A stretch of 64,000 nucleotides of DNA from Pelagomonas calceolata (lineage: Eukaryota): positions 558,001 through 622,000 of the forward strand of contig CAKKNE010000006.1 in assembly GCA_918797485.1 (NCBI GenBank), written 5' to 3'. The notes under the pieces are model-generated. The model worked only from the letters and a program-made list of their open reading frames with translations, ran no database searches and was not told the DNA's origin. Positions 1,341 to 62,861 of the stretch are shown one piece after another. Positions within the stretch are counted from its first letter, which is position 1; every line of letters starts with the position of its first letter. The position numbers and the translations under genes were made by a program.

Positions 1341-1837
1341 CGTGCCGCTCTTCGGCTGTCGGGTGTGCAGCTCTGCGTATATTGATGCGTCCTCGGTGCG
1401 CGTCCAGGCTAGGTTCGACGTTGTGCGGTTGTCGGTGCAAACTCTGGGCAACTAGAAAGAGCCGCGTCAAAAGTCAGCAATGAAAACTGCACGATGTGGC
1501 GCTCAGATATTGCTAGCAAGCAGCCACCGCAAGTGATTCATGCGATAGTATGCGACGATATACGGCTGGCAAAAATCGGCTGCTGGTCGAGACGGGTTTT
1601 TCCCAGATCGAAGCATCCGTCCGGGCCGACGCCACGGACGCATCCACACATAGAAACGAATCGCAGGCACGAGCTGGCAGGGCCCGCAGCGCCGGCCCGC
1701 ACCGTTTGGCAAGCGTTGCCGACGAAGCGAGTAAAACAGCCGCGCGGAGGCAGCCTTTCGGCCATCGCCGTCTTCGGCAGCACCGCACGGTCGCGCGCGC
1801 ACGCCGGGCCAACGCACGGGCTGCCCGCGCGTTCACC

Positions 1838-5641: not shown

Positions 5642-5920
5642 GGCTGCACTAGGTGCTTGTGCTGCAGCAGTGACGGCAGCACGAGCCGTGAGCGCTCGGA
5701 ATTGATTGATGCACAGTACGGTGGTGCTGCGAGGCAGGTCAGCGCCGTGTGTAGCGCACCGCTGGCGTCGCACGCGCTCGGCCACACTCGACACTCAACC
5801 TCAGCTGCCAAGGCTTGGCTCGGCTGGCGTAGGACCCTTCCACTCGTCATCGCGGGCAGGATGAGTCGTGGGGAACCCCAAAATGCGACTGCTATTTCGA
5901 TCTTGGAAAACCCGTGCGTG

Positions 5921-5942
5921 CTAGTGTCTTACTGGACGCTAG
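5921..5942. promoter_or_regulatory. CTAG-bounded conserved upstream element (copy 1), divergent promoter
   Basis: CTAGTGTCTTACTGGACGCTAG between starts 5641(-) and 6080(+). Confidence 0.65.
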
Positions 5943-6079
5943 CGTGCTCGGGACTCGAACTGGAGTGTTATCCAGCGAATTATAAGCTGCGGGTGGCCAA
6001 TTTTCACATCAAAATCTCCCACCAGCTGTCCTATGGCACTGTGCACGTTTGCAGCCGAAACGGCCGACTAGTCGCCACG

Positions 6080-9000
6080 ATGAGTTTTGAAAAGGGCGAC
6101 GTGTCGTCGTCCCCGACCGATGACGCGGCGCCGGAGGGCGAGCCGGCGCCTGACGCCGCGCCATTGCCACCGCCCCCCGTGCCGGCGTTCCTGGAGGGCG
6201 TTTCCGCACCGACAGAGCCTCTCGCGCCGAGCACGGTCACCGCGCCTTCTACGGTCGAGGAGCTCCCGGCCGCCGCGGCGCCGCCGCCGGCCGCCGCGCC
6301 GCCGTGGGCCAGCGGGCCGCCGCCTCCAGCCGCCGCGCCGCCGCCGGCCGCCGCGCCGCCGCCGCCGGCCGCGGCCGCCAAGCCGCCGTGGGCCTGCGGC
6401 CCGCCGGCGCCGTCGAGCCCGGAGCCGCCGCCGCTCCCGGCCTCCGTTATCGCGCGCGCGTCGCCGCTCGGCGCCACGCTGCCACGAGCGTCGCCGCCGC
6501 GGGTCCCGGTCGTGACCCAGGCGTCGCCCCTGCCGGTGCCGGCGGCGCCGCAGCCCGCCGTGACCGTGCCGCGAGCATTACGCGAGCTCGCCGCGCACAA
6601 CACGCCCGCGACCACGACGGCGCTGATGGCGGCCGCCGCGCCACCGCCACCTCCACCAGTGACCGGCCTGCGCTTCAAGGGCGGCGTGTCCTCGGAAACG
6701 GCCGCGGCGCTGCAGCGCGCGGGCGCGGCGCCGCCGCCCCCGGCCGCCGCGGCGTCCGCGCGGCCGCCGTGGGCCTCAGGACCACCGGCGCCGCCGTACA
6801 GCGTCGGCGATTTGGTGGAGGTCAAGCCCGACTGGTCGCCGGGCTGCAACCGCGAGGGCGGCCCCGGCCGCGTCACCGCCGTCAACAGCGACGGCACGTA
6901 CGACGTCAAGTACTCGTTGGGGAGAGGCACGATGCAGGGCGTCCCGCTCGCAGACATGTCCATCCCGTCCAAGCAGAGCCAGGGCCCGGGCGAGGCCGCG
7001 AAACGGTCGCGGCGACGGCAGCCGACGCGGCGCTTCAGCGAGCTGGCCCAGGACGGCCAGAACTACGGCGAGCCCTCGGACGAGCCGCCGCCGCCTCCCA
7101 AACGACGGCCGAAGAAGAAGCGGGCCCTCGCGGTGGCCATGGGCACTGATCTTAGACCTGCGGCGGCGTTACAGAAGCCCGCTGCCGTTGCGCAGCCGTC
7201 CCGACCAAAAGATCCTCCGTTACCTCCGGGCTTGTGGGGCTCGTCCGAAGCACTCGTGTTCAACACTACGAACCCGAAGCGGGGCATGTCCGCCGAAAGG
7301 TATGATAGGTACAAGGCGGCGACTACTGTTGCCGAGTTCGCTCAACTAGGTGGGTCTACTTCCGACTTGAGGTTTGACTTAGCGCGAGGGTATGCTCGCG
7401 TCCTCAACCCGGCGATGCAGCCCGCGCCGTCGTCGCCGCGAGGTCGGCGGTGTGGTGTCTGTGCCGGTTGTCTCGCGCAGGACTGCCGGCAGTGCCCGTT
7501 CTGTCTAGATCAAAAACGCTACGGCGGGCCCGGCAAATTACATAGGACGTGTCAACGACGGAACTGCGAGGCGCCATTACCGTCCGCACCTCCTCCGAAT
7601 GGTGTCAAGCGCAAGGCACCCGTTGTTCAAGAGCCGAAGAAGCGAGGCCGGAAGCCCGCGGCGAAAGCACCCCCGGTAGCACCGAAGCCGGCGCCGAAAC
7701 GATCCCCCCAGAAGGTGCCGGATAGAGCAGGCTTGGAAGCGAGGATGACCGCCGACGGCTGGACGCGCGAGGAGAAGCCTCGCGAGGGCTCGACGCACGT
7801 CGACAAGTACTTCGTGCCTCCGAACGGTGGGAAGAAGCTACGCTCCATCCTGGAGGTGGCCCGCGCCCACTACCCGTCGTTCATTGTCCAACAGAAGGTG
7901 GCACCGCCTCGACCGCTGACGGGGACCTCCGCTCCTGGTCATGTGTGGAACCAGAACGAGCCGGAGGTCGACGAATTAACTGGTGTCGCCTACCAGCCGT
8001 GTGGGGTGTGCAAAGGTAAAAAAGGTGGCGAGTTATTGATGTGCGACGGGAAGGATGGGACTTGTGATAGGACGGCGCATACGGGCTGCTTAAATAAAGA
8101 ATTTCCGCCCGAGGGCGACTGGTTCTGCGCCCAGTGCCGCGCGGCGGCGCAGATCGCGTCGGCGCCGCCCTTCAAGAAGCCCACGAAGAAACGTAAAAGT
8201 GCTGCGAAGAAGGCTGCCGATCTACAACGGTTGGGTCCCGAGCCCCGCGTGCGGTTTAACGATAGCGTGACGGTGATCCAGTGGAAGGCGGCGCCCCGGG
8301 CGGCACCGCGGAAGCGCGGCGAGCCCGTGCTGGAGGACGACGCTACTCGAAGGGCCATTGCGGCCTCTCTGGCTCAGTATAATGATGATGATGGTAGCGA
8401 GTACTCTGATGACTCCGAGGAGCCCGACGACGACGACGGCGGCGAGTGGTCGCCTGACGTTCCAGCGCCTGTTGTTCAGAAGAAGAAGCCTGTGGTGAAG
8501 AAGTCGCCGCCGCCGCCGCCGCCGGCCGTGCTCGAACCGTTACGAGTGCCATCACAACGCTTCGCCGTCGGCGCTAGAGTAGAAGCGCGCTGGGAGGGCG
8601 AGTGGTGGCCGGCCATCGTCGACCAGGTCTGCGAGGACGCCTACGAGGTCGAGTGGGTCGAGGAGCCCGAGGTTTTTAATCGGCTGGATCTGGAGGACGT
8701 GCGGGCCGCTCGAGCGTCGCCCCACTTCGTGGCCGCGCCGCCGACCGTGCCGCCGGCCTGGACTAATGCAGCAGCCGCGCTCGCTACGAGTTCTCCGCCG
8801 TCGAAGGGCGGTACAATACGGCAGCCGTCGCCGCTCGCGGCCTCTCCCACGCGCGTGGTCTCGCGGTCGCCTCCACCTGTTGTACAAGCGCCGCCCTCGC
8901 CGACTGCTGTTCCCGCCGCGACGGGCCGCTGGGCTCCTGCCGCGCCGCCCGCGCCTTCCGCTCCGGCGACGTGGCCGCCGCGCGCGCCGCCGGCGCCATT

Positions 9001-9205
9001 ATTACCGATGGCCGTCGCGCCGCCGCCGTCCGTGCCGCCGCTCTGGCCGGCCGGGGCCGCGCCGCCTCCAATTGATGAGCCGAACGGGACGCCGCGGCGA
9101 CCACCTCCGCCGGACGTGGAGATGACGCCGCGCGCCGAGCACGACGCGTCGCCCGGCGCGACGCCCTCCTTCGCACAGCCACGCGCGCTCGATGATGATG
9201 TCTAA
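6080..9205 (+). CDS. Proline-rich multi-domain chromatin reader: Tudor/Agenet-like, CXXC zinc finger, MBD-like, PHD finger, Tudor
   Basis: CGVCAGC..DCRQCPFCLD..RYGGPG..C..RNC (CXXC). GWTREEKPRE..HVDKYFVPPNGGKKLRS (MBD-like). CGVC..GELLMCDG..CDRTAHTGC..PEGDWFCAQC (PHD). FAVGARVEARWEGEWWPAIV (Tudor). Confidence 0.8.
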   Translation: MSFEKGDVSSSPTDDAAPEGEPAPDAAPLPPPPVPAFLEGVSAPTEPLAPSTVTAPSTVEELPAAAAPPPAAAPPWASGPPPPAAAPPPAAAPPPPAAAAKPPWACGPPAPSSPEPPPLPASVIARASPLGATLPRASPPRVPVVTQASPLPVPAAPQPAVTVPRALRELAAHNTPATTTALMAAAAPPPPPPVTGLRFKGGVSSETAAALQRAGAAPPPPAAAASARPPWASGPPAPPYSVGDLVEVKPDWSPGCNREGGPGRVTAVNSDGTYDVKYSLGRGTMQGVPLADMSIPSKQSQGPGEAAKRSRRRQPTRRFSELAQDGQNYGEPSDEPPPPPKRRPKKKRALAVAMGTDLRPAAALQKPAAVAQPSRPKDPPLPPGLWGSSEALVFNTTNPKRGMSAERYDRYKAATTVAEFAQLGGSTSDLRFDLARGYARVLNPAMQPAPSSPRGRRCGVCAGCLAQDCRQCPFCLDQKRYGGPGKLHRTCQRRNCEAPLPSAPPPNGVKRKAPVVQEPKKRGRKPAAKAPPVAPKPAPKRSPQKVPDRAGLEARMTADGWTREEKPREGSTHVDKYFVPPNGGKKLRSILEVARAHYPSFIVQQKVAPPRPLTGTSAPGHVWNQNEPEVDELTGVAYQPCGVCKGKKGGELLMCDGKDGTCDRTAHTGCLNKEFPPEGDWFCAQCRAAAQIASAPPFKKPTKKRKSAAKKAADLQRLGPEPRVRFNDSVTVIQWKAAPRAAPRKRGEPVLEDDATRRAIAASLAQYNDDDGSEYSDDSEEPDDDDGGEWSPDVPAPVVQKKKPVVKKSPPPPPPAVLEPLRVPSQRFAVGARVEARWEGEWWPAIVDQVCEDAYEVEWVEEPEVFNRLDLEDVRAARASPHFVAAPPTVPPAWTNAAAALATSSPPSKGGTIRQPSPLAASPTRVVSRSPPPVVQAPPSPTAVPAATGRWAPAAPPAPSAPATWPPRAPPAPLLPMAVAPPPSVPPLWPAGAAPPPIDEPNGTPRRPPPPDVEMTPRAEHDASPGATPSFAQPRALDDDV

Positions 9206-12046: not shown

Positions 12047-12410
12047 CTACGGCGGCGGTGGCGACGGCGGCGTCTCGCGGGCGCGGAGCGCGGCTCGCGA
12101 CCTTTGCAGTTCCCGCTCAAGCGTCTTTGTGAACGGGTGCGCGCCGCCGAGGACGCGCCGCGCGATCCGTTCCGACTCCTCGAGCGTCGCCACGGCCTCG
12201 CGGAGATCGTCGAGTGTGGCGGTGGAGTCATGGTAGAGCGCCCGCGCGTAAACCCATCCCATCCTAAGCGTGAGATCATTGCCCTCCCCGAGAGCGCGTC
12301 GCGCCACGGGTATCGCTTTGCGAAACAGCGACTTGGCTTCTTCGAAGCGCTGTAAACTACAAAGGGTTGTTGCGAGGTTATTGACAGATATGAGGGTATC
12401 CCTATGTCCG
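12047..12410 (-). pseudogene. 5'-truncated fragment of a kinesin-light-chain-type TPR gene
   Basis: TLISVNNLATTL..RFEEAKSLFRKAIPVARRALG..ATLDDLREAVATLEESERIARRVLGGAHP. No start codon; abuts an oppositely oriented paralogous fragment. Confidence 0.6.
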
Positions 12411-12412
12411 GT

Positions 12413-12580
12413 GCCACCCTCGACGATCTCCGCGAGGCCGTGACGACGCTCGAAGACTCGCAACGGATCGCAAGGCGCGTGTTTGGCGGCGCGCACCCGC
12501 TCACGATGGGGATTGAGGGCAGCTTGCAAGACGCGCGAGCCGCGCTCCGCGCCCGCGAAACGCCGCCGAAGAGGGCGTAA
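12413..12580 (+). pseudogene. Second 5'-truncated TPR C-terminal fragment (inverted paralog)
   Basis: Translates ATLDDLREAVTTLEDSQRIARRVFGGAHPLTMGIEGSLQDARAALRARETPPKRA*. Inverted homolog of 12066-12220. Confidence 0.65.
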
Positions 12581-14082: not shown

Positions 14083-14252
14083 CCCGCATCGATTGTCCGC
14101 CCGCCTTAGCCGTGCACACTGATCGCCAGCGCCTCGTCGTAGTCGCATCGATGCAACCTCCAGCGCTGCGCAGAGATCGGCAGTCGTGCGACTCGCCACT
14201 GCTGTGAAAATGGGCACATTGTGAGAGCACCACTTTTTACGCCATCGAAGCG

Positions 14253-15266
14253 ATGGCTGCACGCTGTCGCGGCTACCTCGCCGGCTTGCAAAGCTGGGTC
14301 TCGCCTCGAACTCGTCAAACATTGCTCGGCGGCGAACCTTTTGGTAGCTTCGAGCATTCGTACGACGCGCTCGGCGGCGTCGACAACGCGGACCTACTCG
14401 CCTTCGAGGCCGACCTAAAATCAACACGCGGCTGGGAGTTCAAATACGGGTCGCGGAACTGGAGCGTCGTCGAAGCCGGCGGCGTGCGCGCTCTGCTCAA
14501 CAACGAGGCGCCGGCGGCCGTTCAGAGCAGCATTCGCGTCGACGGCGGCCCGCCGCCCCTCTCCGGCCCGCTCGGGTCCGCTGTGGGCGGCCTCGGCCTC
14601 GCTGCACCCCTGTACAAGTCGGCGGGTTTCGGTGGGTGGGGGAAAAAGCCGGCTGTGCTGCTCCTGGGCGGCGGCGGCTGCGCGTTACCACCCGTCCTTC
14701 GCGACGCGCTAGGAGCGACCGTGACAGCGGTGGAGCCGGACGATGAAGTTCGGAGCATCGCGCGCGAGTATTTTGGGGCGCCCGCGGAGTTGACCGGCGA
14801 CGACGCGGCCGAGGGCGCGCCCGCGGTGCCAACGCCTGGAAGTTGGGGCCACCTCGTCGGCGGCTGCGGCGCCACGGCGGTGACGGAGGCGCGCGATGGC
14901 AGTTTTGACATTGTTGTTGTCGACGCCGCGGACGGTGGGAATGCGCCGCCTGACGCGTTGGCGTCGCCTGCGTTCTTCGCGGATGTAGGTCGAGTTCTCG
15001 CTCCGAGGACGGCGGTCCTGGCCGTCAATCTGGTCGCCCGGGACGCCGAGACCCTGACGCGTGTACGCGACGCGGCGGCCGGCGTCGGCGGCGAGCTGTT
15101 TGAATGTGAGCTGCCGGCGCCGCTCGTTGCGGAAGGATCTCCCGATTTCGCGCGGCTCCTGTTCGCGGTCCGCGGCTATGATACGTCACCGTTGTGGGGG
15201 CATCCGCTCCTCGCGCACGTTGATGAGTCGGAGTTGTGGATGACAGGGTTCCGGGGTCTTGTGTAA
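14253..15266 (+). CDS. Class I SAM-dependent methyltransferase (spermidine-synthase-like/METTL13 C-terminal-like)
   Basis: VLLLGGGGCALP, VTAVEPD..V..IAREYFG, FDIVVVDA, LAVNL motifs. Confidence 0.7.
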   Translation: MAARCRGYLAGLQSWVSPRTRQTLLGGEPFGSFEHSYDALGGVDNADLLAFEADLKSTRGWEFKYGSRNWSVVEAGGVRALLNNEAPAAVQSSIRVDGGPPPLSGPLGSAVGGLGLAAPLYKSAGFGGWGKKPAVLLLGGGGCALPPVLRDALGATVTAVEPDDEVRSIAREYFGAPAELTGDDAAEGAPAVPTPGSWGHLVGGCGATAVTEARDGSFDIVVVDAADGGNAPPDALASPAFFADVGRVLAPRTAVLAVNLVARDAETLTRVRDAAAGVGGELFECELPAPLVAEGSPDFARLLFAVRGYDTSPLWGHPLLAHVDESELWMTGFRGLV

Positions 15267-23611: not shown

Positions 23612-23794
23612 GCGTCCTTCCCGGCTAACTATTGTATACTTATAGCCTTCTCTCGCGGCGATGGCGTATCATCGGTGTTTGCTCGTGCTGCTACGGTAAC
23701 TGTCTCTTGTGCTTCGTGGGACGTGTAGACGTGTCGCGTCGATGGCGTGCGAGTGGTCGGACTCGATGTGGTACCGTAATACATATATCGCTTG

Positions 23795-30529: not shown

Positions 30530-32145
30530 ATGGCCTTCTTCCAAAGCGGAGACAAAGAAATAGTTGTGGACGACGACACCGTCGAACCCTACGAGAGCCC
30601 GCTCGCCCATCAAAAGTCGTACGACGACTTCAGTGCAGTACAAGAACCCAAGGCGAGGCAAGGCCGCGTCTATCGCCTCCAGCCCGCCGTGAAGCAGTAC
30701 GCCTGGGGGATCAGAGGAGGTGATAGTCGCGTAGCCCGCTATGGCTTAGAAACGGGCGCGTTAAAAACGATCGATCAAAGTGCTCCTTATGCGGAGATCT
30801 GGCTCGGCACGCACCCCTCTGGGCCTTCATTATTAGATGATGGGACTGAGTTATCCAAAGTAGTCAAGGGCGGCAACCTACCTTGGTTGCTGAAAGTCCT
30901 CAGTGCCGGGAAAGCCTTGTCCATCCAGGCGCACCCGGACAAGTCCCTCGCGGAGAAGCTCCACAAGGACAAGCCCGACTTGTACAAAGACGCAAACCAC
31001 AAGCCCGAGATGGCCATCGCGCTGACGCCCTTCGAGGCCATGTGCGGGTTCCGGCGGCTGTCGGAGATTGCGGTCCACTTGCGCAAGCATCCGGAGTTCG
31101 CCGCTTGTATTTCGACCGAGGCGCAGCTCGCCGTCTTCACGGCGGGGCCCCGCGATTCGAAAGCGCAGAAACTGGCGTTGCATAAAGTGTTCGAGTCGTT
31201 TATGGTCTGCAGCGGTGTCTCTCAGAAATTTCAACATGCGGCGCTCTGCTCGATGGCGTCACGTGGATTCTACCCCACCGCCACGCCATCGCCGCGACGT
31301 CGACGCGACGGCTCACCGGTCACGCAACGCAGGCCTGCGAGCCCGACGTCTCGTCCGCCCAGCTCAAGCTCTTGGTCCAACGCCTAAGGAGGGAGCAGCG
31401 CGCCCAGTTCCGGCCGAGCGGCGCGCAGCACATCAACCCCGCGGCGCCCGTCCTCTCGCCCGGCTCCGCGGCCAAAGATGATGAGGTCCCCGAGAGCGCC
31501 TGGGAGCGGAAGGCCGCGCGAGCTATTTTGAGATTGGAAGAGCAGTTCCCGGGCGACGTCGGGGCCATGGCTCCGTTGTTTCTCAACTACTTATTGATCG
31601 CGCCCGGAGAAAGCTTCTTCATGGCTGCGAACGAACCGCACGCCTACGTCGCCGGAGAAATCCTGGAGTGCATGGCGTGTTCCGATAATGTGGTGCGGGC
31701 CGGACTGACGCCGAAGATGAAAGATGTTGATAATCTCGTGGACATGCTGACCTATAGCATGGGTGGCCCTGACATCGAGTTTGGTCGATTAGTCCACCAG
31801 GGGCCTGGTACTCGTACCTTATGTTATACTCCCCCAGTCCCCGAGTTCGAAGTACTCATTACGACGGTCGAGACCGGTGCTACTTATGATATCGCTCCTT
31901 GTGAGGTTCCTTCTATATTAATCTGTGTGGAAGGTATCGGGCATACTCAAAGTGCTCCTGGGCCTGATGGGGTGGAGCCCCAAAGAAAACATAGATATGA
32001 ATTGTGCCCGGGCAAATCGCTCTATATCACGGCGGGCACCGTGGCGCTGACGCTCGTCAACGACATGACCACGAAAGGACCGCTGCGGGTCGCGCGGGCG
32101 CGCCAGAACCTGAGCCTGGCGGGGCGCGCGGAGGACTCCCAGTGA
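30530..32145 (+). CDS. MPI: Mannose-6-phosphate isomerase, type I; 2 exons (intron 31205-31332)
   Basis: QYAWG, PYAEIWLGTHP, LLKVLS..KALSIQAHPDK, DANHKPEM, NEPHAY, ECMACSDNVVRAGLTPK. A 128-nt intron joins the frames (ESFM|ACEPD). Confidence 0.93.
31205..31332 (+). mobile_element. 128-nt introner-derived intron
   Basis: GTCTGCAG vs downstream GCCTGCGA (decayed TSD). Core ACGCCATCGCCGCG at 31283-31296; CTCAC branch-like motif; CGCAG acceptor. Confidence 0.8.
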
Positions 32146-49546: not shown

Positions 49547-50853
49547 ATGCGCGCGATGGGTCATCAATTGCTGCTGGCAAGCTGTCTCCTCTCCATCACC
49601 ACGCACGCGCTCCAGTCTCCCGCGCGGACGTGGCACGACATCAAGTGGACGCCCACGAGCATGCGCTACTACGCCACGCGCCCGCCCAAGGACCTGCCCG
49701 CCAATAATCAGACGACCTTCGTCGCATGCGTCCGACACTTCCTCGTCAAGCGCCGGCGCGCGCTCCTCTACGTGGCGTATTTCGCCCTGGGCGTCGCGCC
49801 GGCGAAGGCCGTGCACCACGACAAGTGGACGGCGCTGCGCCAAAAGCCGGCTGACCTCGGCGGCATTCGGACGAGACGGCGGCGCGCCCAGGCGATCTCG
49901 CAATTCGCCGGAATTGGCTACTCGCCGCGCGTCGTGGCGCTCGCGGGCTTAATGCTCCGGGCGCTGGTCAAGTGTTTTAGGGCACCTCTCGAGCCGTCGA
50001 TCGGCTTCGGGGTGGGCACGAAGCTCGCGGCTCGGTACGCCCATCGGGAATGGCTGCCGTGCCTCGTGCTTGGGTGGTATGCGGGCGGGCCCCTGTGGGA
50101 CGCTGTGCGGAAATCAAAATTTTACGGCGCGTTCGTGCTGAATCGCCGCGTCGTCCTCCACGCCATCGACGCGACGCCTGCTCGATGGCGTGGCGATGCC
50201 GGTTCCTCGCCGCTCGACCGAGCCAGGACGGCCGCGTCATCGCCTAGAAATGACTTCGTGATGAATTGTCGGGTGCCCGACTCACTGGTTGATTTCCACA
50301 CAGGTGGGACGTCCTGGACGTGAAGCCGCCGGCCTGGAACAAGGGCGTCCCCATCGTCGTGAATCGCGTGCGTCCCGGCTGGAAGTGGCCAACAAGGGGC
50401 GGTGCCCTGATACAGCCCGGCGTCTGGGAGCAAGGCGCGCCGCGCGAGTCGAACGCGAAGCTGCTCTTGGATCTGCGGGCGGAGATGCCGGGCGAGAGGG
50501 CGGCGGAACAGCGGCTGCTGACTTTGTTCTATGCCACACGAAGAATAGTCGATGCGGCCGGCCGCGCATTGCCGCAGGGGCAGGCCGTCGACGCGTGTCT
50601 ATACAACGAACCGTTTGACCGCGGCGACGCCATCGGCGCGGGAGTACCTTGCCTCCTCGAAGCGGATGGCGCGCTCGTCGTCGCCAAGGATCGAACGCCG
50701 TGGGAGTTGAGCACGTTCGAGCCCGCGACTGATTTCGAGACGCTCGAGAAGGCCCTGGCGTCGGCGGAGGCGGTAGCCATCCCGCCAGACGCACGGCTCT
50801 GGGCATTCGCGCTGACCGGCGCGACGAGTGACGAAGAGAACGATTCCTTCTAA
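49547..50853 (+). CDS. Hypothetical signal-peptide-bearing membrane protein; 2 exons (intron 50095-50303)
   Basis: A 209-nt intron joins ORF 49547 to ORF 50320 in frame (GGPL|WDVLDVKPPAW). Confidence 0.75.
50095..50311 (+). mobile_element. Intact introner element: 8-bp TSD + 201-bp non-autonomous TIR element
   Basis: TSD GTGGGACG at 50095-50102 and 50304-50311. TIR CTGTGCGGAAATCAA (50103-50117) / TTGATTTCCACACAG (50289-50303), 14/15 match. Confidence 0.93.
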
Positions 50854-50895: not shown

Positions 50896-53800
50896 CTACG
50901 CCTCCATCGACGCCGGCGACTCCACGGCCTTCATGCGCTTGGCGTCGGCGTCTTCAGTAGTCGGCGCGGAGCGCTTGCGCGACCGCGACTTCTTCGGTTT
51001 CTCTGAGGCAGTCACGCTCGCTCTAGGAGAAGACTTGGGCCGCGAGCGGCCGTCGAGGTCGCTGTTCTCCTTCTCGACGAGCTTGATCAGCAAATCGGCG
51101 CGCCGTCCGAGCTCCGACGCGTTTCTCGACTTGAAAAACCAGTCGAAGTTGAACTGCCACGCGTTGCGGATCTCGACCCTAATTCTCTCCCAGTTCCCGT
51201 ACCCGTAGGTGTGCATCATATTGAGCAAAAATGCGTCTTCCTCCTCGGTCCAGACCTTGCCTCTGGAGGCGCCGTAGTTCAGCGGCAGGCACTCGTGGGG
51301 TTTCGGCGACCGGGCAATCTTCTCAGCCAAAGCTTCCCTAATCTCCTTCGACCGCTGCAGGCGCTTCTCGCCCTTCTCGATCTTATCTATGACGCGCTCC
51401 CAGTCGGCGAGCTCCTTGTGCCGCTCCCAGAAGACTTTGTGATAGCGCCGCACCTCCTCTTCAGTCTTCCCCGTCTCGTTCGACGTCTCGCGCGCGATGA
51501 CGTCGACCTCGTCGCGCCCGCGCCGCTCCATGGCGTTCAGGAACGACCGGAAGTCCTTCCTAGTCCTGTGTGGAACGGACGCCGTCGCGAAACGGCCGCG
51601 GCTCCCTCGCGCGACCCGTAGACTCTCATGCGGCCGCGTCGACGGCGTCGAGGCGACGCGGCATCGCATCGATGCCGTCGCGACGACCACGTCACGTTGA
51701 AAGTCAACATATATATATATATACATCTCCACGCCGAGTCGCGGACCAGTCGACAAAGCCCTCCCGCAGCAGCTGCTCCTTCTTCTCGAGCTTCGCGCCC
51801 GTCAATTCATATGAAGAGCCCTTCTCGAGCTCCTTGGCGACCTCGCGCGACTGCTGGAGGTGGGCCTCAGCCTCAGCGCACGGACTCGGTTCTTGGCCCG
51901 CAGCTTTCGCTTTGGCATTGGCCTCGTCTTGCGCCTTCTTGCCCTTCTGCTTGAGCTCGCGCGCCAGCGACTGCGCGTCCTTGCGGCGCTGCTCGAGGCG
52001 CTCCTCCTCCTGGACCAGTTCTCCGAGCTCTTCTCTGTTAAAGAACTGGAAATCATGCATCGCCGGTCCTTTGCGCTTCTTCTCCCGCGGCTCCTTGCGC
52101 TTCTTCGAGCCGTCGTTGAGCGTGTCGCGGAAGTACTCGTCCACATCATAGTTGCGCTTGCGCTCGCGCGTCGGCAGGTTGATGAGTAACCCGGCGCCCT
52201 TGGCTCCCCGATAATTGGCGCCCTCGAACTCGAACAAGGAACCAGGAGCCGCGTCTTGCGTCGTGAGCGAGAAGTTCGCCAGGTTGTGCTGCGCGTCCGT
52301 CTCGATCTTCTTGTTCTGCTCCGCGGTCCGTTCCTCGCCGCGCTTGAGTAACACGTCAATGTCCTCGTCCGTGAGCTGCTTGGACTTGGACGCGAAGATC
52401 TCGTCGGCGCCGAAGCGCACCATGGCCATGAGGTCCTGTTTATTGACACTAGTGTTCTGCTCGGCCAACCGCCCCTGCTGGATGACGGCCGCGTCTAGGA
52501 ACAGCTTCCTATCAGCTCTTTCTACAATCTTCTCCTCGACCGTGCCCTCCGTCACGAACCGAAAGACCGTCACGGGCTTCGTCTGGCCGATGCGGTGCGC
52601 GCGGTCCATCGCCTGGAGATCGACCTGCGGGTTCCAGTCCGAGTCGTACAAGACGACGATGTCCGCCGTCGCTAAGTTAATACCGAGGCCGCCCGCTCGC
52701 GTCGACAACAAGAACGCAAATTTGGGCGAGTTCGGCGCGTTGAACGTGTCCATCTGCAGGTCGCGGTCGTCGCCCGACGTCGACCCATCGATTCTACAGT
52801 ACGCGTAGCGCTTCAGCCGCATGAAATCCTCCAATATATCGAGCATGCGCGTCATCTGCGAGAAGATCAATACGCGCGACTGCTGCGCCTGGAGCTTCGG
52901 CAGCAACTTCGACAGTAGCACTAATTTGCCCGTGTTCTCCCAGAGATGAGGCCCGTCCAAAAACGGCGGCCCCGGCTCGGCGCCCTCAAACAGGTAGGGG
53001 TGGTTGCAGACCTTCCTCAGTTGCATGAGGATGTTCAGCAACCGCACGCGGTCCGGCCCGCCGAGCGCGTTTAACGTGTGCGCGTCCTTGCTCAGGATCT
53101 TCGTGTACCAGAGCCGCTGCATCTCCGTGAGGCCGATGTATAATTTAATTTCTCGTTTCGGCGGTAGGTCGGCTTCCACGTCGCGCTTGATGCGCCGCAA
53201 CATGAACGGTCTCAAAACAGTGTGTAACTTCTTAACGACGTTGTCCTTCGCGCCGCTGTCTCCACCTAAACTGAACCAGGTCTCGAAGTCCGCTTCTGAC
53301 GAAAAGATGTCTGGCAGCAAGAAGTTCAGCAGAGCCCACAACTCGTTCAGGTTGTTCTGGAGCGGCGTGCCCGTGATCAACAGTCGGAACTGCGTCGGGA
53401 TCGTCCTAACGATACGAGATAACGACGAGTTCGGGTTCTTGATGCGGTGCGCCTCGTCAATGAGCAAATAGCTCCAGTTGATCTTACATAAAGCTCCCTT
53501 CTCCTTAAGGACGCCCTCGTACGACGTCACGCACACGTCGAAGCTCTCGGGGTCCCGCAAGTCTTCCCGGATGCACCGCGCGCGCTCGTGCTTGTCCCCT
53601 AATAATTTAACAGGCCTCATGGTAGGGCACCACTTGCGCATCTCGCGCATCCAGTTGTTGACCACACTTTTCGGCACGATGCAGATGTGGGGGCCGTGGA
53701 TGTTTTTTGTTTCCGCGAGGTAGGCTAGTAAGGAGATGGACTGGAGGGTCTTGCCGAGGCCCATCTCGTCCGCCAAGATGCCGTTGATGCCGTTATCATG

Positions 53801-55657: not shown

Positions 55658-55869
55658 GTGTAAGGAAGGTGATCCTGTAGTCTCGTACGGCTCGTATGGC
55701 GGCATACTAGCATGCGTCTCTGCAGCGCGAGGGGCGCTGCGCGCTGCAGCAGGGTGTTGTGCCAGCGCGTCCGCTGTAGGTCGAAGACCTGATGTGTTGC
55801 AGAAGCGCGCAAGCGTAACCGGAGGCGGCAGCCATGCTGCGGGCAGCGAAAGCGTAGATGCAGGCAGCC

Positions 55870-58800
55870 ATGCTGCGGGCAGCACTCTTGGGCTGCCTCG
55901 CCGCGGCGGCCACAGCCCCAGCACCCCCCATCGCGCGCGCTGGTAACGCTACGCGTGCGCGTCGACGGCTGTCCGTCGACTACCAGGAGGTCGCGAAGCT
56001 CGTGGCCAGCGACGCCGCGGCGGGCGACAACTTCTGCTCTGTGGCCATCGACGGCAACACTATCGTGGTTGGGGCTTACCAAGACGACAGCGGTGGCTCG
56101 GGCTCGGCCTATGTCCTCCGCACGAGCGACGGCGGCGCCACGTACGTCGAGGTGGCCAAGCTGACGGCCGCCGACGCCGCGGCGGAGGACTTCTTCGGCT
56201 TCTCCGTGGCCATCGACGGCAACACCGTCGTGGTCGGAGCCCGCTACGACGACGACGCGGGCTCCATGTCGGGCTCGGCCTACGTCTTCCGAACGAGCGA
56301 CGGCGGCGCTACCTACGATCAGGTGGCCAAGCTGACGGCCGCCGACGCCGCGGCGGAAGACCAGTTCGGCGTCTCCGTGGCGATCGACGGCGACACCATC
56401 GTGATTGGGGCCTACAAAGACAACTCTGGTCGTGGCTCGGTCTACGTCTTCCGCACGACTGACGGCGGCGCCACGTACGGCCAGGTGGCCAAGCTGACGG
56501 CCAGCGATGCCGCGGAGGACGACTGGTTCGGCGCCTCCGTAGCGATCGACGGTGACACCATCGTGATTGGAGCCTACTGGGACGACAATCTCTCGGGCTC
56601 TGCCTACGTGTTCCGCACGACCGACGGCGGCGCTACCTACGATCAGGTTGCCAAGCTGACGGCCGCCGACGGCGCGGCGGAAGACCGCTTCGGCGTCTCC
56701 GTGGCGATCGACGGCAACACCATCGTGGCCGGGGCCTACGGCAAGGACAGCTACACGGGGTCGGCCTATGTCTTCCGTACGACTGACGGCGGCGCCACGT
56801 ACGGCCAGGTGGCCAAGCTGACGGCCGCTGATGCCGCGGAGGGCGACGGCTTCGGTCTCTCCGTGGCGATTTACGGCGACACCGTCGTGATCGGTGCCGT
56901 CGGCAAGGACAGCTACACGGGGTCGACCTACGTCTTCCGCACGACTGACGGCGGCGCCACGTACGGCCAGGTGGCCAAGCTGACGGCCTCCGACGCCGCA
57001 GTGGACGACGGCTTCGGCTTATTCGTGGCCATCGACGGCGGCACTATTGTGGCCGGGGCGTACGGAGACGACGACGGCGGCGACGGCTCGGGCTCGGTCT
57101 ACGTCCTCCTGGACGCCCCCACGGGACCGACGCCACGCCCGACGCCCGCGCCGACGGCGGCCTGCACCGACGTCGTCGACATCGAGGGCACGATGCACAC
57201 GTGCGACGAGGCGAGCGCCAGCTGGGGCCTCGACTGCGTCTGGCTCGAGGTCGCGCGCGGGCTGAACTGCCGGGGCTGCGACTGCGCCGTCGACGGCGTC
57301 CAGAGCGGCAACATGTGGAGCATGGAGATCTACGACGCGACGTGCACCACCGCCCGGCCGCTCTGGGGCGCCGGCGACGTCCTGGTGGCGGAGGACATCG
57401 GCGGCGCCATCTTCCAGGACGGCCAGCCGGCGGTCTTCGCGAACGACGTCTGCAGCGACCTCTTCGACTGGAACGGGCGGCAGGTCTCGGTGCGCGGGCG
57501 CTGCTCGAACGGCGAGGTCTGGGCGCAGTGGTTCGACGGGGCGGGCTGCGACGCGGACGCGTTCTACGACGCGGAGGCCAACGACCGGCACTGGCTCGGC
57601 GGCGCGTCGTCGTGGAACGACGGGGAGTGCGTCGTCGTGGAGCTGCGGCGGCCGTCCACGCCGACGCTGAGCGAGGCCCTGCGTTTCGCGTGCGTCGCGA
57701 CGCCGGCGCCGACCGTGTCGCCGACCCCCTCTCCTTCAAAGCCGCCGACGTCCCTGCCCACGCTCACGCCGACCTACTCGCCACGCCCTACGGTCCCGCC
57801 GACGTCGTCACCTTCCTCGCCGCCGTCGTCTCAGCCGTCGCCCCGGCCGACGCGCGTGCCGACCGCGGCGCCCAGCGCCGCACCGACGCCCTATCCGACG
57901 ACGTCGCTGCCATCGTTGCTGCCAACATCTCGGCCCACCGCCGTGCCCTCTCGGTTGCCGACCGCCGTGCCGACGGCGCCGCCGACGCCCGCTCCGTCCG
58001 GACTGCCGACGACGGCCGTACCGACTGGACTTCCAACGACACCGCCCCCGACGCCGCCGCCCTCAAGCGTACCGTCGCGCGTGCCTAGTTCCCTGCCGAG
58101 CGCCGTCCCGACGAAGCCGCCCTCGAGCGTGCCGACCGTTCCGCCGTCGCGCGCGCCGAGCCCCGGCCCCACGGTCACGTTCATGCCCTCGATACTACCG
58201 ACACCACTACCATCGCCCTCTCCTACGACGGCCGCGCCCACGATGCTGCCGACGCCATTGCCGTCGCCCGCTCCGACGACAGCCTCGCCGACGCCAGCGC
58301 CGTCTCCACTACCTTCGCCGGCGCCGACCATTTCCCCCGGCCCGACGCCGGAACCCTCGACCTCGGCGCCGTCGCGCTTCCCCAGCGCGGCGCCGTCGGC
58401 CTCGCCGACCGTGCCGCGGCCGCGGCGCGAGGAGGTGCGCGCCGCGGCGTGGCGACCGCCGCTTTGGAGTTTTATTGTGCTGGCGGTCCTCGTGGGTGCC
58501 GCGCTGATGGGCCCCGGTGCGTGGTTCGCGCTGAAAAAGTACAAAGCGCGGCTGACCGACCGCATCCGGAGCGACGTCGAGTCCAAGATGCTGTCGCCTC
58601 CGGAACGGCCGCCGCGGGCCACGCCGCGCCGCGACTACGACTACGAAACCACTCGAAATTTGCCGCTGCCGCTCGCGCCGACCGCACCGTCGACGTGGCA
58701 CCCGCCGATGCGGCCTCCGGGCTTCGACGCGTACAGCCGCGCGACGCGGTCTGCGGGCCCCTACGTCTACAGCCGTGCGCCGCCCGCCACGCCGCATTCG

Positions 58801-59310
58801 TCCCGGTCCCGGCGCAGTCCCCTCGTGGCGCCCTACACGCCACCGTCGCGGCGCTCGGCAAAGGTCGCGCCGACGCCGACGTCCCCGCTCGAGGCCGAGC
58901 TCTCCGAGCTGCGGTCGCGCCTCGAGGCCGTCGAGGCGCCGATCGTCGCCGAGGTCGCGGAGTTGCGTGCCCGCCTCGACTTCGTCGAGCGGTCGTCGCC
59001 GCACCACTCCCCCGACGCCGCCGATCGAGTGCACCGCGCGGACGCGAGCGCCTACTCGTCGGCGTCGCGGACGCGCGCCTCGGGCGTGAACGCAGACCAC
59101 GCCGGCGAGCGGGCCTGGCCGATGATCCCGCGGCGGCTCTTTGCCGACGAACCCGCGCCGGCGCGGCGAGATCCGCTCGCGGCATCGCCCGGTTCACGAG
59201 AGTCCTACGGCCCCGGGCGCCACCCGTCGCGGAGGCGGTCGATGAACGACGAGGCCGCCGCCCCCTCGACGCCGCCCGCCGGCGACGATATGCGAGTGGA
59301 AGACTTGTGA
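55870..59310 (+). CDS. Type I membrane protein: FG-GAP repeat beta-propeller, Cys-rich domain, Pro/Thr mucin-like stalk, TM, cytoplasmic tail
   Basis: Signal peptide; 7 repeats of KLTAADAA.D.FG.SVAIDG.TIV.GA; PT-rich stalk; TM LWSFIVLAVLVGAALMG. Confidence 0.85.
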   Translation: MLRAALLGCLAAAATAPAPPIARAGNATRARRRLSVDYQEVAKLVASDAAAGDNFCSVAIDGNTIVVGAYQDDSGGSGSAYVLRTSDGGATYVEVAKLTAADAAAEDFFGFSVAIDGNTVVVGARYDDDAGSMSGSAYVFRTSDGGATYDQVAKLTAADAAAEDQFGVSVAIDGDTIVIGAYKDNSGRGSVYVFRTTDGGATYGQVAKLTASDAAEDDWFGASVAIDGDTIVIGAYWDDNLSGSAYVFRTTDGGATYDQVAKLTAADGAAEDRFGVSVAIDGNTIVAGAYGKDSYTGSAYVFRTTDGGATYGQVAKLTAADAAEGDGFGLSVAIYGDTVVIGAVGKDSYTGSTYVFRTTDGGATYGQVAKLTASDAAVDDGFGLFVAIDGGTIVAGAYGDDDGGDGSGSVYVLLDAPTGPTPRPTPAPTAACTDVVDIEGTMHTCDEASASWGLDCVWLEVARGLNCRGCDCAVDGVQSGNMWSMEIYDATCTTARPLWGAGDVLVAEDIGGAIFQDGQPAVFANDVCSDLFDWNGRQVSVRGRCSNGEVWAQWFDGAGCDADAFYDAEANDRHWLGGASSWNDGECVVVELRRPSTPTLSEALRFACVATPAPTVSPTPSPSKPPTSLPTLTPTYSPRPTVPPTSSPSSPPSSQPSPRPTRVPTAAPSAAPTPYPTTSLPSLLPTSRPTAVPSRLPTAVPTAPPTPAPSGLPTTAVPTGLPTTPPPTPPPSSVPSRVPSSLPSAVPTKPPSSVPTVPPSRAPSPGPTVTFMPSILPTPLPSPSPTTAAPTMLPTPLPSPAPTTASPTPAPSPLPSPAPTISPGPTPEPSTSAPSRFPSAAPSASPTVPRPRREEVRAAAWRPPLWSFIVLAVLVGAALMGPGAWFALKKYKARLTDRIRSDVESKMLSPPERPPRATPRRDYDYETTRNLPLPLAPTAPSTWHPPMRPPGFDAYSRATRSAGPYVYSRAPPATPHSSRSRRSPLVAPYTPPSRRSAKVAPTPTSPLEAELSELRSRLEAVEAPIVAEVAELRARLDFVERSSPHHSPDAADRVHRADASAYSSASRTRASGVNADHAGERAWPMIPRRLFADEPAPARRDPLAASPGSRESYGPGRHPSRRRSMNDEAAAPSTPPAGDDMRVEDL
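55990..57108 (+). repeat. Seven tandem ~160-170-bp FG-GAP coding repeats
   Basis: Recurrent GTGGCCAAGCTGACGGCC...GACGGCGGCGCCACGTAC units. Confidence 0.9.
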
Positions 59311-60800
59311 CTGTTAAATATATAAATAAATTAATTAAGGGAGATTAGTAGATAATACTACTGCGTAGAACTACTTGCGGACGCCGCGGCCGATCGTGGC
59401 TCCGACAGTGGCACCGACGACCGCACGCCCGCCCCGCCCCCGGCCCATTAGTAATTGGGATTAAATCTAATCAACGTCCTCCCGGCCCATGCCCTTCTCC
59501 CCGTGCAGGTAACGCTCGATGGCGGGGAGGACTTGATCGGCTCGGCACGCGATCAACGCCGCGACGATCTCCTTGGAGCGACGGCGCGTCCGCGTCTAAA
59601 TTGTCGTTCCGCAGCGCCAAGGTGATGCGTTGCGTCGGGCCGCTTGTTATTTCGAAGGCGCGGGGTCCGGAGTCCTGGTTCGCGCCGCCGGGGCCCTTCA
59701 CATATGCATATCGCAGCAGGTTGGTTTCAATGTTGTTTTCGCCGGCTTTCACCGATACGAGGAGGCGTGTTCTGACCAATGTGTTTAATAACCGCGTGCC
59801 GGCCTCGCCCTCGTCACCCTCATTCGCGTCGCGGCGGCCGGACATTTTTGTTGTCAAGGTCGGCTAAACATATTGAGCTAGTTATGACCCACTAGATTTT
59901 CACGCTCGACGCCGCTTTTTGAGCCGTGGTTGGGCCGTATTGTTGTGCATCACCCGCAGTTGTGCTCATCACTCAGTGGCGCGCTGCGCCTCAATCGGTG
60001 CGGCTGCGCGGGCGACGCGGTGCGCCGTGCTGAGCCTCACAAAAATCGGAGACTCCTGGCGCCTGGCGGCCCGCGCGCGGCGCGACGCGTGCAAAGCGCC
60101 GCCCCCCGGGCCCGCGCTCGGCCTCGGCCGCATGCTGAACGACTCGGCGCGCTCGCCGCAGCGGTACACGTCTCGCCGCTGCGCGCCGCCGCGGCCGTCG
60201 CGGCCGCGACCGCATCGATGGCGTCGGGCGGCTCGCGGGTCGCGCCCGAGCTGACGCCGGACGTCGCCGTTGACTTCTGATAGCGGGCCGCGCGGCTCGA
60301 AGCGGTGCGTCGATTCTTCGTGGGATGCGGCACACTACCGAAGTCTTGGAAGAGGCCAACTCGGATTTGATCCGGCCGAGACGCATACCTAGCTTTTTCG
60401 ACATCATGTCGGAGGCGCTACCTTTCAGTGTGTAGTCTATCTCGTCGTCTATGCACTACTACGACGACATCTGACCTCGAGACGATCTATCGTGGGCTCA
60501 GAGCACACCGTCGTCGAGGGCAATCAAACACGTCGGTGTCCTGGCATCTCGTGGCGCGCTACTAACGTTCCGAGGGTGCCGTTCTCGGGGGCTACGACAA
60601 TCACCAGCCCCGTCGCGCTTGCAAAAGAAGCGTCAGCCACGTCGTCGCTCGGGGTTTCTAATATAGCTGCTCCTATGCTGTAGACATGCTAGGACCGGTG
60701 GTGGTGCGGCGCACACGGCCACACACGGGCCGCCGGGCCTGGGAGAGGCTCTCCGCATGTTGGTATTGTTGCTCTCCGCACGCGGCTCCCCGGTGCCAAA

Positions 60801-62861
60801 ATGAGCCGGAGAGGCTGCGCGTGCGATGGTCCAGTAGAGAAAACGCCATTTGGAGCAGACGTCCAGCTGTTCGCAGACCTGCGAGTAACACTGCCGCCCC
60901 CACTGCCGCCGAGCGATGCCGCGCACGACTCGTGTTACTGGCCGTACGGCGCGCGAAACGAAGAAGAGTACGACGCGAAAGTAGCGCGCAACGAGCTCCT
61001 GCAGATGGGGCCGTACGAGCGCGCGGCGCTGCGGGAATGCATGCCGAGGATCCGCAGCCTGGACGGCCGCCAGTTTCAGCTGGCCCTGAAGCAGTACGCG
61101 AAGACCGAGCGGTTTAGATACGCGGCCGCAAGGATGCCGGCCTGGTTCGCCGAAGGGTGCCGGACGGGCGCTTTCGCGCCGTACGTCGCCGGCGAGGAGG
61201 CCGCGCGCGCCGCCGCCGCGCCGCCGTCGGCGCCTGCGAGAAGGGCGCCCGCCGCGGCGCCGCCGCGGAGACGACTTCTGCGCGGCGGCGCGCGGCGGCG
61301 GCCGCCGCCGCCGGTCCCGGCGGCCGTCGAGCCCGACGAGCCCGACGTCGAGGAGAAGATCGACGTGAGAAGGCTGACGGCGGCGGACTACAACAAGCCG
61401 GGCGCCTCCATGGCCGAGAAGGACGAGACCCTAATAGCTTTATTGGATGCGTGTCGAAAGGGCGTGTTCGGCGAGGAGCTCCGGGACTGCGACGTGCCGA
61501 AGAGCTGCGTGGTGGCGGAGGACTACCCGCTCGGCGTGCACGTGGATAGACGACGCGGCACCTTCGGCCGCAACGGCGGCGACGCCGCCGACGCGGAACT
61601 GCTGGCCGCGGGCTTCGTGCCGGTTAGTGGTCGAAGCAACGTGGCGAGGGTGGACGAGGCGCTCGAGCGGTACAGGCCGGTGCTGCGGGCCGCGGCGAAG
61701 CAAGGGCTAATGTCGACGTCGTCGAAGGAGATTGCGGACGGCGTCGCCATGTTGGCACGGTGGGTACGGAGGGCGCGCCCGTCGGACGCCGTCGGGAGGG
61801 CCTACCTCGATCTCGCCGTGGAGCTGAGCGCTGATGCGGAGCCGAAGAACATTCCGTCTTACAACGGCAAACAGTACTGGGCGTACCGCATCGGGGCCGA
61901 GGCGAGCGCCGTGCTGGCGCGTGCGAACGCGGAGGAGGACGACGACGACGAGGACGATGAGGACGCGCCGCTGCCCGCGAAGCGGCCGAGAAAGAAGGTC
62001 ACCTACGCAAGCGACGACGAGGACCAGGACGAAGGGGTGGCCTTCGTTGCTCAGGAGGACGACGGCTGCGACTCGGCTGACGAGGACGTATTTGACGACG
62101 AGGAGGACGACAACGACGCGCCCGCGGCTCAGCAAGGGACTGACGGGCCCGACGAGTCCGACGACAAGAAGATCGACGTGAGAAGGCTGACGGCGGCGGA
62201 CTACAACAAGCCGGGCGCCTCCATGGCCGAGAAGGACGAGACCCTAATAGCTTTATTGGATGCGTGTCGAAAGGGCGTGTTCGGCGAGGAGCTCAAGGAC
62301 TGCGACGTGCCGCAGAGCTGCGTAGTGGCGGAGGGCTACCCGCTCGGCGTGCACATGAATAGACGACGTGACACCTTCGGCCGCGGCGACAACGACGCAG
62401 CCGACGCGAAACTGCTGGCAGCGGGCTTCGTGCCGGTTAGCGCGAGAAGCACTGTGGCGAGGGTGGACGAGACGTTCCTGCGGGTCGCGCCGGTGCTGCG
62501 GAACGCGGCGAAGTGCGAGCTCGGGACGACGTCATCGGCGGAGATTCAGAACGCCGTCGCCACGTTGACAACGTGGGTACGGAAGGCGCGCACGTCGGAC
62601 GCCGTCGGGAAGGCCTACCTCAAGCTCGCAGTGGAGCTGGGCGGCCTGGCGCCGAAGAATGCGAGGGGCGGCCCGTGGGGCACCGGCGTTTACTGGGCGC
62701 ACCGCCTCGCGAAGCAGGCGCGCGCCGTGCTCGCGGGCGACGCGCCGCCGCCGCGGACGAAGAAGAAGGCTGCTGCTCCCAAGAAGCGGGCTTCGTCGCC
62801 GCCGCGCCTGCCGCCCAAGAAGCGCGCGAAGCCGGTCAAGAAGCGGTCGGGGCGGCGCTAG
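60801..62861 (+). CDS. Hypothetical nuclear protein with two copies of a ~185-aa module containing a helicase-associated (HA)-like motif
   Basis: DCDVP.SCVVAE.YPLGVH..RRR twice; acidic linker; basic NLS-like tail. Confidence 0.65.
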   Translation: MSRRGCACDGPVEKTPFGADVQLFADLRVTLPPPLPPSDAAHDSCYWPYGARNEEEYDAKVARNELLQMGPYERAALRECMPRIRSLDGRQFQLALKQYAKTERFRYAAARMPAWFAEGCRTGAFAPYVAGEEAARAAAAPPSAPARRAPAAAPPRRRLLRGGARRRPPPPVPAAVEPDEPDVEEKIDVRRLTAADYNKPGASMAEKDETLIALLDACRKGVFGEELRDCDVPKSCVVAEDYPLGVHVDRRRGTFGRNGGDAADAELLAAGFVPVSGRSNVARVDEALERYRPVLRAAAKQGLMSTSSKEIADGVAMLARWVRRARPSDAVGRAYLDLAVELSADAEPKNIPSYNGKQYWAYRIGAEASAVLARANAEEDDDDEDDEDAPLPAKRPRKKVTYASDDEDQDEGVAFVAQEDDGCDSADEDVFDDEEDDNDAPAAQQGTDGPDESDDKKIDVRRLTAADYNKPGASMAEKDETLIALLDACRKGVFGEELKDCDVPQSCVVAEGYPLGVHMNRRRDTFGRGDNDAADAKLLAAGFVPVSARSTVARVDETFLRVAPVLRNAAKCELGTTSSAEIQNAVATLTTWVRKARTSDAVGKAYLKLAVELGGLAPKNARGGPWGTGVYWAHRLAKQARAVLAGDAPPPRTKKKAAAPKKRASSPPRLPPKKRAKPVKKRSGRR
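61354..62294 (+). repeat. Intragenic duplication with a 128-bp identical block (61354-61481 = 62167-62294)
   Basis: Direct comparison; offset 813 bp, in frame. Confidence 0.9.

Follow-up and report, generated by a model that had tools for sequence, protein, structure and literature searches.

The original description of the introners of Aureococcus anophagefferens is said to be that of Huff et al. in 2016. These introners carry one splice site and recruit the other from the target duplication (10.1101/2020.10.14.339549, PMC7789003, PMC10228655, PMC11282704), and they occur in either orientation with direct repeats (DR) and terminal inverted repeats (TIRs) of constant length (10.1101/2020.10.14.339549, PMC7789003, PMC10228655). 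In Polarella glacialis, ILE classes 6, 8 and 10 show an 8-nt GHN6 duplication and form introns in either orientation (10.1101/2020.10.14.339549). Presence/absence polymorphism in the wild, hot spots and gains within a 15-bp window have been described in Micromonas (PMC4540971) and fungi (PMC4457414). For Pelagomonas calceolata, 956 putative introners are reported, which form introns of about 210 bp with a GT or GC donor, an AG acceptor and a conserved TIR (PMC9481584, Supplementary Note 3); the accessible part of PMC9860276 lists the TSD and TIR of the Pelagomonas families as '?'. The family studied here is not a new one: TIR-bearing P. calceolata introners that use GT or GC donors are already in print (PMC9481584).

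We analysed a 64-kb stretch of P. calceolata DNA (64,000 nucleotides; hereafter the window, whose coordinates are used throughout), in which the gene of a 365-aa protein is interrupted by a spliced intron. With high confidence, we regard this intron as consisting of one member of a repeated, inverted-repeat family of P. calceolata together with one of the two copies of an 8-bp duplication; a cut-and-paste transposase encoded elsewhere most likely generated it. Its parts are arranged as follows.

49547 to 50094, plus strand: coding part of exon 1 of the host gene (365-aa protein), from the open reading frame and RNA depth on the same strand
50095 to 50102, plus strand: the 8-bp target duplication, left copy; its initial two bases form the 5' splice site (phase 2)
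50103 to 50303, plus strand: non-autonomous TIR element of 201 bp, the introner body, from the repeats, the TIRs and the run-off of family reads at both ends
50103 to 50117, plus strand: left TIR, from the repeat scan; base 50108 is a minority variant
50158 to 50193, no strand assigned: internal 12-bp perfect inverted repeat, the hairpin core common to dispersed relatives, from the repeat scan and fold
50289 to 50303, plus strand: right TIR, from the repeat scan, ending in CAG, which is the 3' splice site
50304 to 50311, plus strand: right copy of the duplication, kept as the start of exon 2, from RNA reads; present as a single copy in the empty alleles L001 and L004
50304 to 50853, plus strand: coding part of exon 2 of the host gene, the spliced product being identical to P0044

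A re-scan reproduced every repeat that the initial annotation had reported, namely exact 8-bp repeats, a 201-bp element and TIRs matching at 14 of 15 positions. Both 50095-50102 and 50304-50311 read GTGGGACG, an 8/8 direct repeat on either side of the element. No other structure within the window combines an 8-bp repeat with TIRs of at least 14/15, and none of 50 order-5 Markov copies of the window yielded one. Among the nine slides across the 8-bp repeat, a single register gives GT..AG, with the GT at 50095-50096 and the AG at 50302-50303. The left copy of the duplication provides the donor and the element provides the acceptor, because GT opens the target and CAG closes the TIR; the donor and acceptor originally proposed agree with this sole register and with the RNA reads described below. 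The CAG on the opposite strand is supplied by the left TIR. Since both TIRs end in CAG, the element would be spliced in either orientation. In the predicted fold, the TIRs pair with each other (z -3.4, none of 200 shuffles being as stable), and an Rfam search gave 0 matches. The element has the hallmarks of a MITE, being short, TIR-bounded, flanked by a duplication and of high copy number, with no transposase found among the 54 long ORFs of the window. The CTCAC motif, previously noted as branch-like, is indeed present at 50281-50285, but it is not a branch motif of the family, because 73% of the family reads in RNA run X21 have other letters at 50282, where the T of the window is in the minority.

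Removal of 209 nt creates the 365-aa ORF at 49547-50853; retention of the intron would end the frame at 50323. Translation of the spliced form gives a protein identical to P0044, an annotated P. calceolata protein, and a public gene model therefore already includes the intron. Splicing takes out the element together with one copy of the duplication and restores the uninterrupted message, scarless and in frame as first claimed. In X21, 35 reads were placed on 49826-50125. All seven partly fitting reads (7/7) leave at 50102 and resume at 50312 onward in exon 2; in this placement the depth inside the element is 0 and no junction read enters it, in line with splicing in the RNA junction check proposed at the outset. 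These reads alone would be compatible with an empty allele too, yet 34 of the 35 are 99+% alike to the window, and wild alleles differ by ~14-15%. The share of locus words present was 0.92-0.96 in DNA-type runs versus 0.69-0.86 in culture RNA-type runs, the lower share being expected if the element is spliced out. DNA run X3, which may be the source of the window DNA itself, carries the filled allele. Pieces from X1 and X4 end at 50081 and 50092, short of the junction, and one X9 contig joins 50215-50303 to exon 2, representing either retention or DNA. Alternative in-frame GT donors at 50059, 50074 and 50077 were rejected, as no loose read ends occur there in X21 at a threshold of three reads. 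Searches of the host protein gave no Pfam family and no usable Atlas match.

The bin of the element has a depth of 1207 + 759 in X21, compared with 14-44 in the flanking exon bins. Family reads run off into unlike sequence at 50103 (1439 reads) and at 50303/50305 (425 + 420), so the mobile unit is bounded by the TIRs and not by the donor. The translated element is present in 767 of 847 candidate proteins, which belong to unrelated genes, and at the protein level copies lie in both orientations. Family read depth and these proteins together confirm that the element has other genomic copies. A side effect is that gene callers read through the element, so that at least 767 database proteins (including P0085-P0203) share a spurious 'domain'. 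The duplication was examined in back-translated proteins: 119 of the 767 were among the matches listed (besides P0012), and 31 of them cover both ends, representing 30 distinct sites. Of the lengths k = 2 to 11, only k = 8 was enriched, in 8/30 sites versus 1.9 expected (binomial p 3.7e-4 on back-translation). A duplication compatible with perfection is thus found at only 8 of the 30 sites, and it is often decayed. GT or GC on one strand fits 29/30 sites (Fisher p 0.017, likewise on back-translation); insertions would be tolerated only where the target offers GT or GC on the coding strand.

Two relatives are found within the window.

51566 to 51746, minus strand: degenerate relative with the GT-N6-TIR layout and junction reads, forming a spliced intron of 181 nt in the adjacent gene for an ISWI-type remodeller
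3841 to 3955, minus strand: shorter degenerate relative, a putative 115-nt GT..AG intron with the GT-N6-TIR layout and a 5/8 duplication; its removal restores a frame, as judged from sequence only

The first of these introns has 181 and 126 junction reads and is absent from the sister-lineage locus L005. In the metagenome locus L004, two family introns lie in the ISWI-type gene at 1298-1385 and ~1472-1590 (minus strand), and the same sites are empty in the window. Both have the GT-N6-TIR layout; the 80-bp one of the two has perfect 15-bp TIRs and a duplication of only 3/8, with the donor still located 8 nt before the TIR. Dispersed fragments of the hairpin core occur in the window at 129-223, 2181-2215, 4581-4878, 14239-14273, 23733-23749 and 31238-31312, some apparently outside introns. 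Other features of the window include a 157-bp inverted repeat (12065-12220 and 12413-12568, 84% alike) that overlaps a TPR-repeat ORF and has related sequence twice in L005, a CXXC/MBD/PHD chromatin protein (5600-9205), an FG-GAP repeat protein (55858-59310) and a protein with a 610-bp internal duplication and a weak helicase-associated match (60693-62861).

A route through RNA, by reverse splicing of the excised intron, has been proposed for fungal and Micromonas introners. Such a route would suit a family whose copies are abundant in RNA, whose intron folds stably and whose duplications are often imperfect. However, the mobile unit ends at the TIRs instead of the donor, the first 8 bases of the intron are site-specific, and both orientations occur. 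Spread via RNA is largely refuted by the site-specific duplications, and we consider it very unlikely. In the transposition model that we prefer, a transposase acting in trans would insert the 201-bp element and duplicate 8 bp of the exon.

From 395 candidate stretches, six metagenome loci (L001-L006) were compared. The orthologous site is empty in five of them, namely L001, L003, L004, the sister-lineage L005 and the distant L006, in line with the empty-site alleles that the initial annotation had suggested seeking in other strains. L003 and L004 are genomic, given that both run into neighbouring genes and that L004 holds unspliced introns; L001 may derive from a transcript. The element is present at this site in L002 (a filled allele), whose exon 1 is 85.6% identical to the window over 222 nt (14% diverged), this locus being one contig that ends 28 nt into the element and is possibly chimeric. 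The empty L001 is 93.2% identical to the filled L002, and an intron at this position is absent in both outgroup loci (2/2, L005 and L006). One might suppose instead that an old intron was later invaded by the repeat, with intron loss explaining the empty alleles: precise loss via cDNA would also leave a single 8-mer, and the polarity depends on few outgroups. Yet the intron holds nothing beyond the duplication and the element, L005 and L006 are empty, and the same layout recurs at unrelated sites, which leaves this the least probable of the explanations considered and a highly improbable one. Being spliced, repeated at unrelated loci, TIR-bounded, associated with a k = 8 duplication, equipped with a co-opted donor and matched by empty sites, the element is an introner, as initially identified.

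The description of the insertion as pristine and recent was overstated. The window letter differs from the X21 family reads at 50108 (97% of reads), 50146 (74%), 50245 (97%), 50257 (94%), 50262 (97%) and 50282 (73%), and 2 additional bases follow 50275 in 408 of 1177 reads, corresponding to a 2-nt gap in the window copy. Two libraries have the 50108 letter of the window copy in 3.5% and 7% of their family reads. These X21 reads are weighted by expression, and the protein set agrees with them, the protein-level family majority being also unlike the window copy (W 66/72, L 97/110, K 104/110). Moreover, orthologous copies of the element at this site can be read in six proteins, and they differ from one another. 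Because of the divergence from the family majority, the differing orthologous copies and the filled haplotype of only 85.6% identity, the insertion is, as far as these data show, a presence/absence polymorphism of some age and not a fresh event; it would be of moderate age and recombined onto diverse haplotypes. Over 49547-50101, the window and L001-L004 share 97%-100% protein identity with a DNA difference of ~14-15%. The alleles of the host gene are mosaics, L004 being identical to the window over one part and about 80% identical over the rest, indicating high diversity with recombination. In addition, the host-gene alleles P0005, P0006 and P0009 break off elsewhere in exon 1, reflecting further insertions or assembly errors.

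Duplications of 8 bp are typical of hAT elements, the TIR consensus of which starts (C/T)A(A/G)NG. The present TIR starts CTGTG and departs from that consensus start. The 8-bp duplication agrees with hAT without being exclusive to it, as Mutator elements also leave 8-bp duplications (PMC5225508, as far as its available text goes); the earlier link to hAT had used the duplication length alone, and we assign no superfamily. The same element could nevertheless belong to a hAT family that is active at present and have inserted very recently, as first inferred and as suggested by the duplication length, by its perfection, which only 8/30 family sites share, and by presence/absence polymorphism at this locus and at the two L004 sites. 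We judge this version unlikely, in view of the minority letters and the 2-nt gap, the protein-level majority, the six dissimilar orthologous copies, the filled L002 (one contig, with chimerism possible) and the Mutator precedent. The 54 long ORFs of the window include no transposase family, as initially stated, and neither do 4 further proteins that were checked. Among viral contigs, no match was found except for one contig with a 22-nt match, so a virus vector receives no support. This 22-nt core lies at L008:1969-2020 in an AT-rich 39-kb virus-classified contig (4% complete), with no TIRs or duplication seen; the same segment also has ~30 nt similar to a loose end seen in RNA run X9. Prokaryote genomes gave one match, L007:2646-2675, a bacterial MAG contig that ends in the 3' end of the element and probably reflects contamination or mis-assembly.

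Wild alleles point to another insertion site 7 nt downstream.

50311 to 50318, plus strand: second site, empty in the window, a putative 8-bp target starting GT, from wild alleles at the protein level

Among the matches listed, 84 proteins represent the host gene: 32 are uninterrupted, 6 enter the element at the first site, 12 enter it at the second site, and 34 do not cover the junction; with up to 15 members listed per cluster, these tallies are not frequencies, and some of the 32 may be transcript-derived. At the protein level, the second-site entries comprise 6 forward and 6 reverse orientations. A second-site insertion predicts exon-2 proteins that begin within the element and continue into VLDVKPP, and 4 were found among the 27 that start near the junction. 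The left end of the forward form shows 1 conflict in 12 codons with the right end of the reverse form, whereas the element of the window gives 14. Two of the reverse forms have a left end that conflicts with the forward form's right end at 0 of 13 codons; in the remaining four the number is 2-4. Two uncommon variants are shared by the second-site forms: a left end shorter by 2 nt, which a search biased to one frame found in 0 of the 119 listed family proteins, and a Tyr variant, found in 11 of 101. The simplest reading of these protein data is that the second-site forms would be one element in two orientations; two insertions of one subfamily, or an assembly artefact, are possible instead. A local hop from the first site to the second, suggested by a shared minority base at TIR position 6, was dropped, because this variant comes and goes at another locus (the P0093 cluster) and because the second-site element differs from that of the window at both ends (14 and 9 conflicts).

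We scanned variability along 15 uninterrupted near-identical alleles, leaving out the sister-lineage, distant and frameshifted rows. Of the 336 windows scanned along the protein, the one of residues 185-188, the four codons at the two insertion sites, varies most, with 8 extra states (mean 0.19 per column). Relaxed constraint instead of footprints is a real rival explanation, because the pattern was noticed before the test and the outgroups vary there too. Tentatively, we put forward a hot spot, in which the second-site intron would invert in place between its TIRs and stay valid either way, while footprints of repeated entry and exit would make these four codons the most variable. If this flip-and-footprint reading is true, introners would be scarless going in and mutagenic going out. 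A literature search, with most subscription papers outside its reach, found no report of an introner inverting in place or of this locus.

On its own, the element is ordinary: given a published mechanism and a host species already known for such introns, it is a clean confirmation of that mechanism. The value lies in the population view, in which empty, first-site and second-site alleles (the last at the protein level) apparently coexist among near-identical versions of one gene, a picture that DNA-level data would have to prove. The host is an abundant ocean alga, and this coexistence allows a direct test of intron gain, inversion and loss on marine reads that already exist. Should DNA data bear out both the flip and the footprint signal, introners would act locally as a source of protein variation and would be more than neutral passengers.

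In comparison with known systems, the element resembles the published P. calceolata introners in species (by protein identity), intron size, donor and acceptor, and TIR; in contrast to our analysis, the available account (PMC9481584) makes no mention of duplication, donor co-option or polymorphism. It is like the Aureococcus introners, as far as their accessible descriptions go, in splice-site recruitment, orientation and DR/TIR, a likeness of layout and not of sequence. It shares the 8-nt duplication and either orientation with Polarella ILE classes 6, 8 and 10, as available text describes them, whereas the Polarella elements reside in a dinoflagellate and use GA donors; the likeness is again one of layout, and homology is not implied. 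The near-parallel gains in Micromonas and fungi, according to the accessible parts of PMC4540971 and PMC4457414, lie mostly between clades or species. The Pelagomonas locus instead presents two sites 7 nt apart among near-identical alleles, one of them apparently occupied in both orientations.
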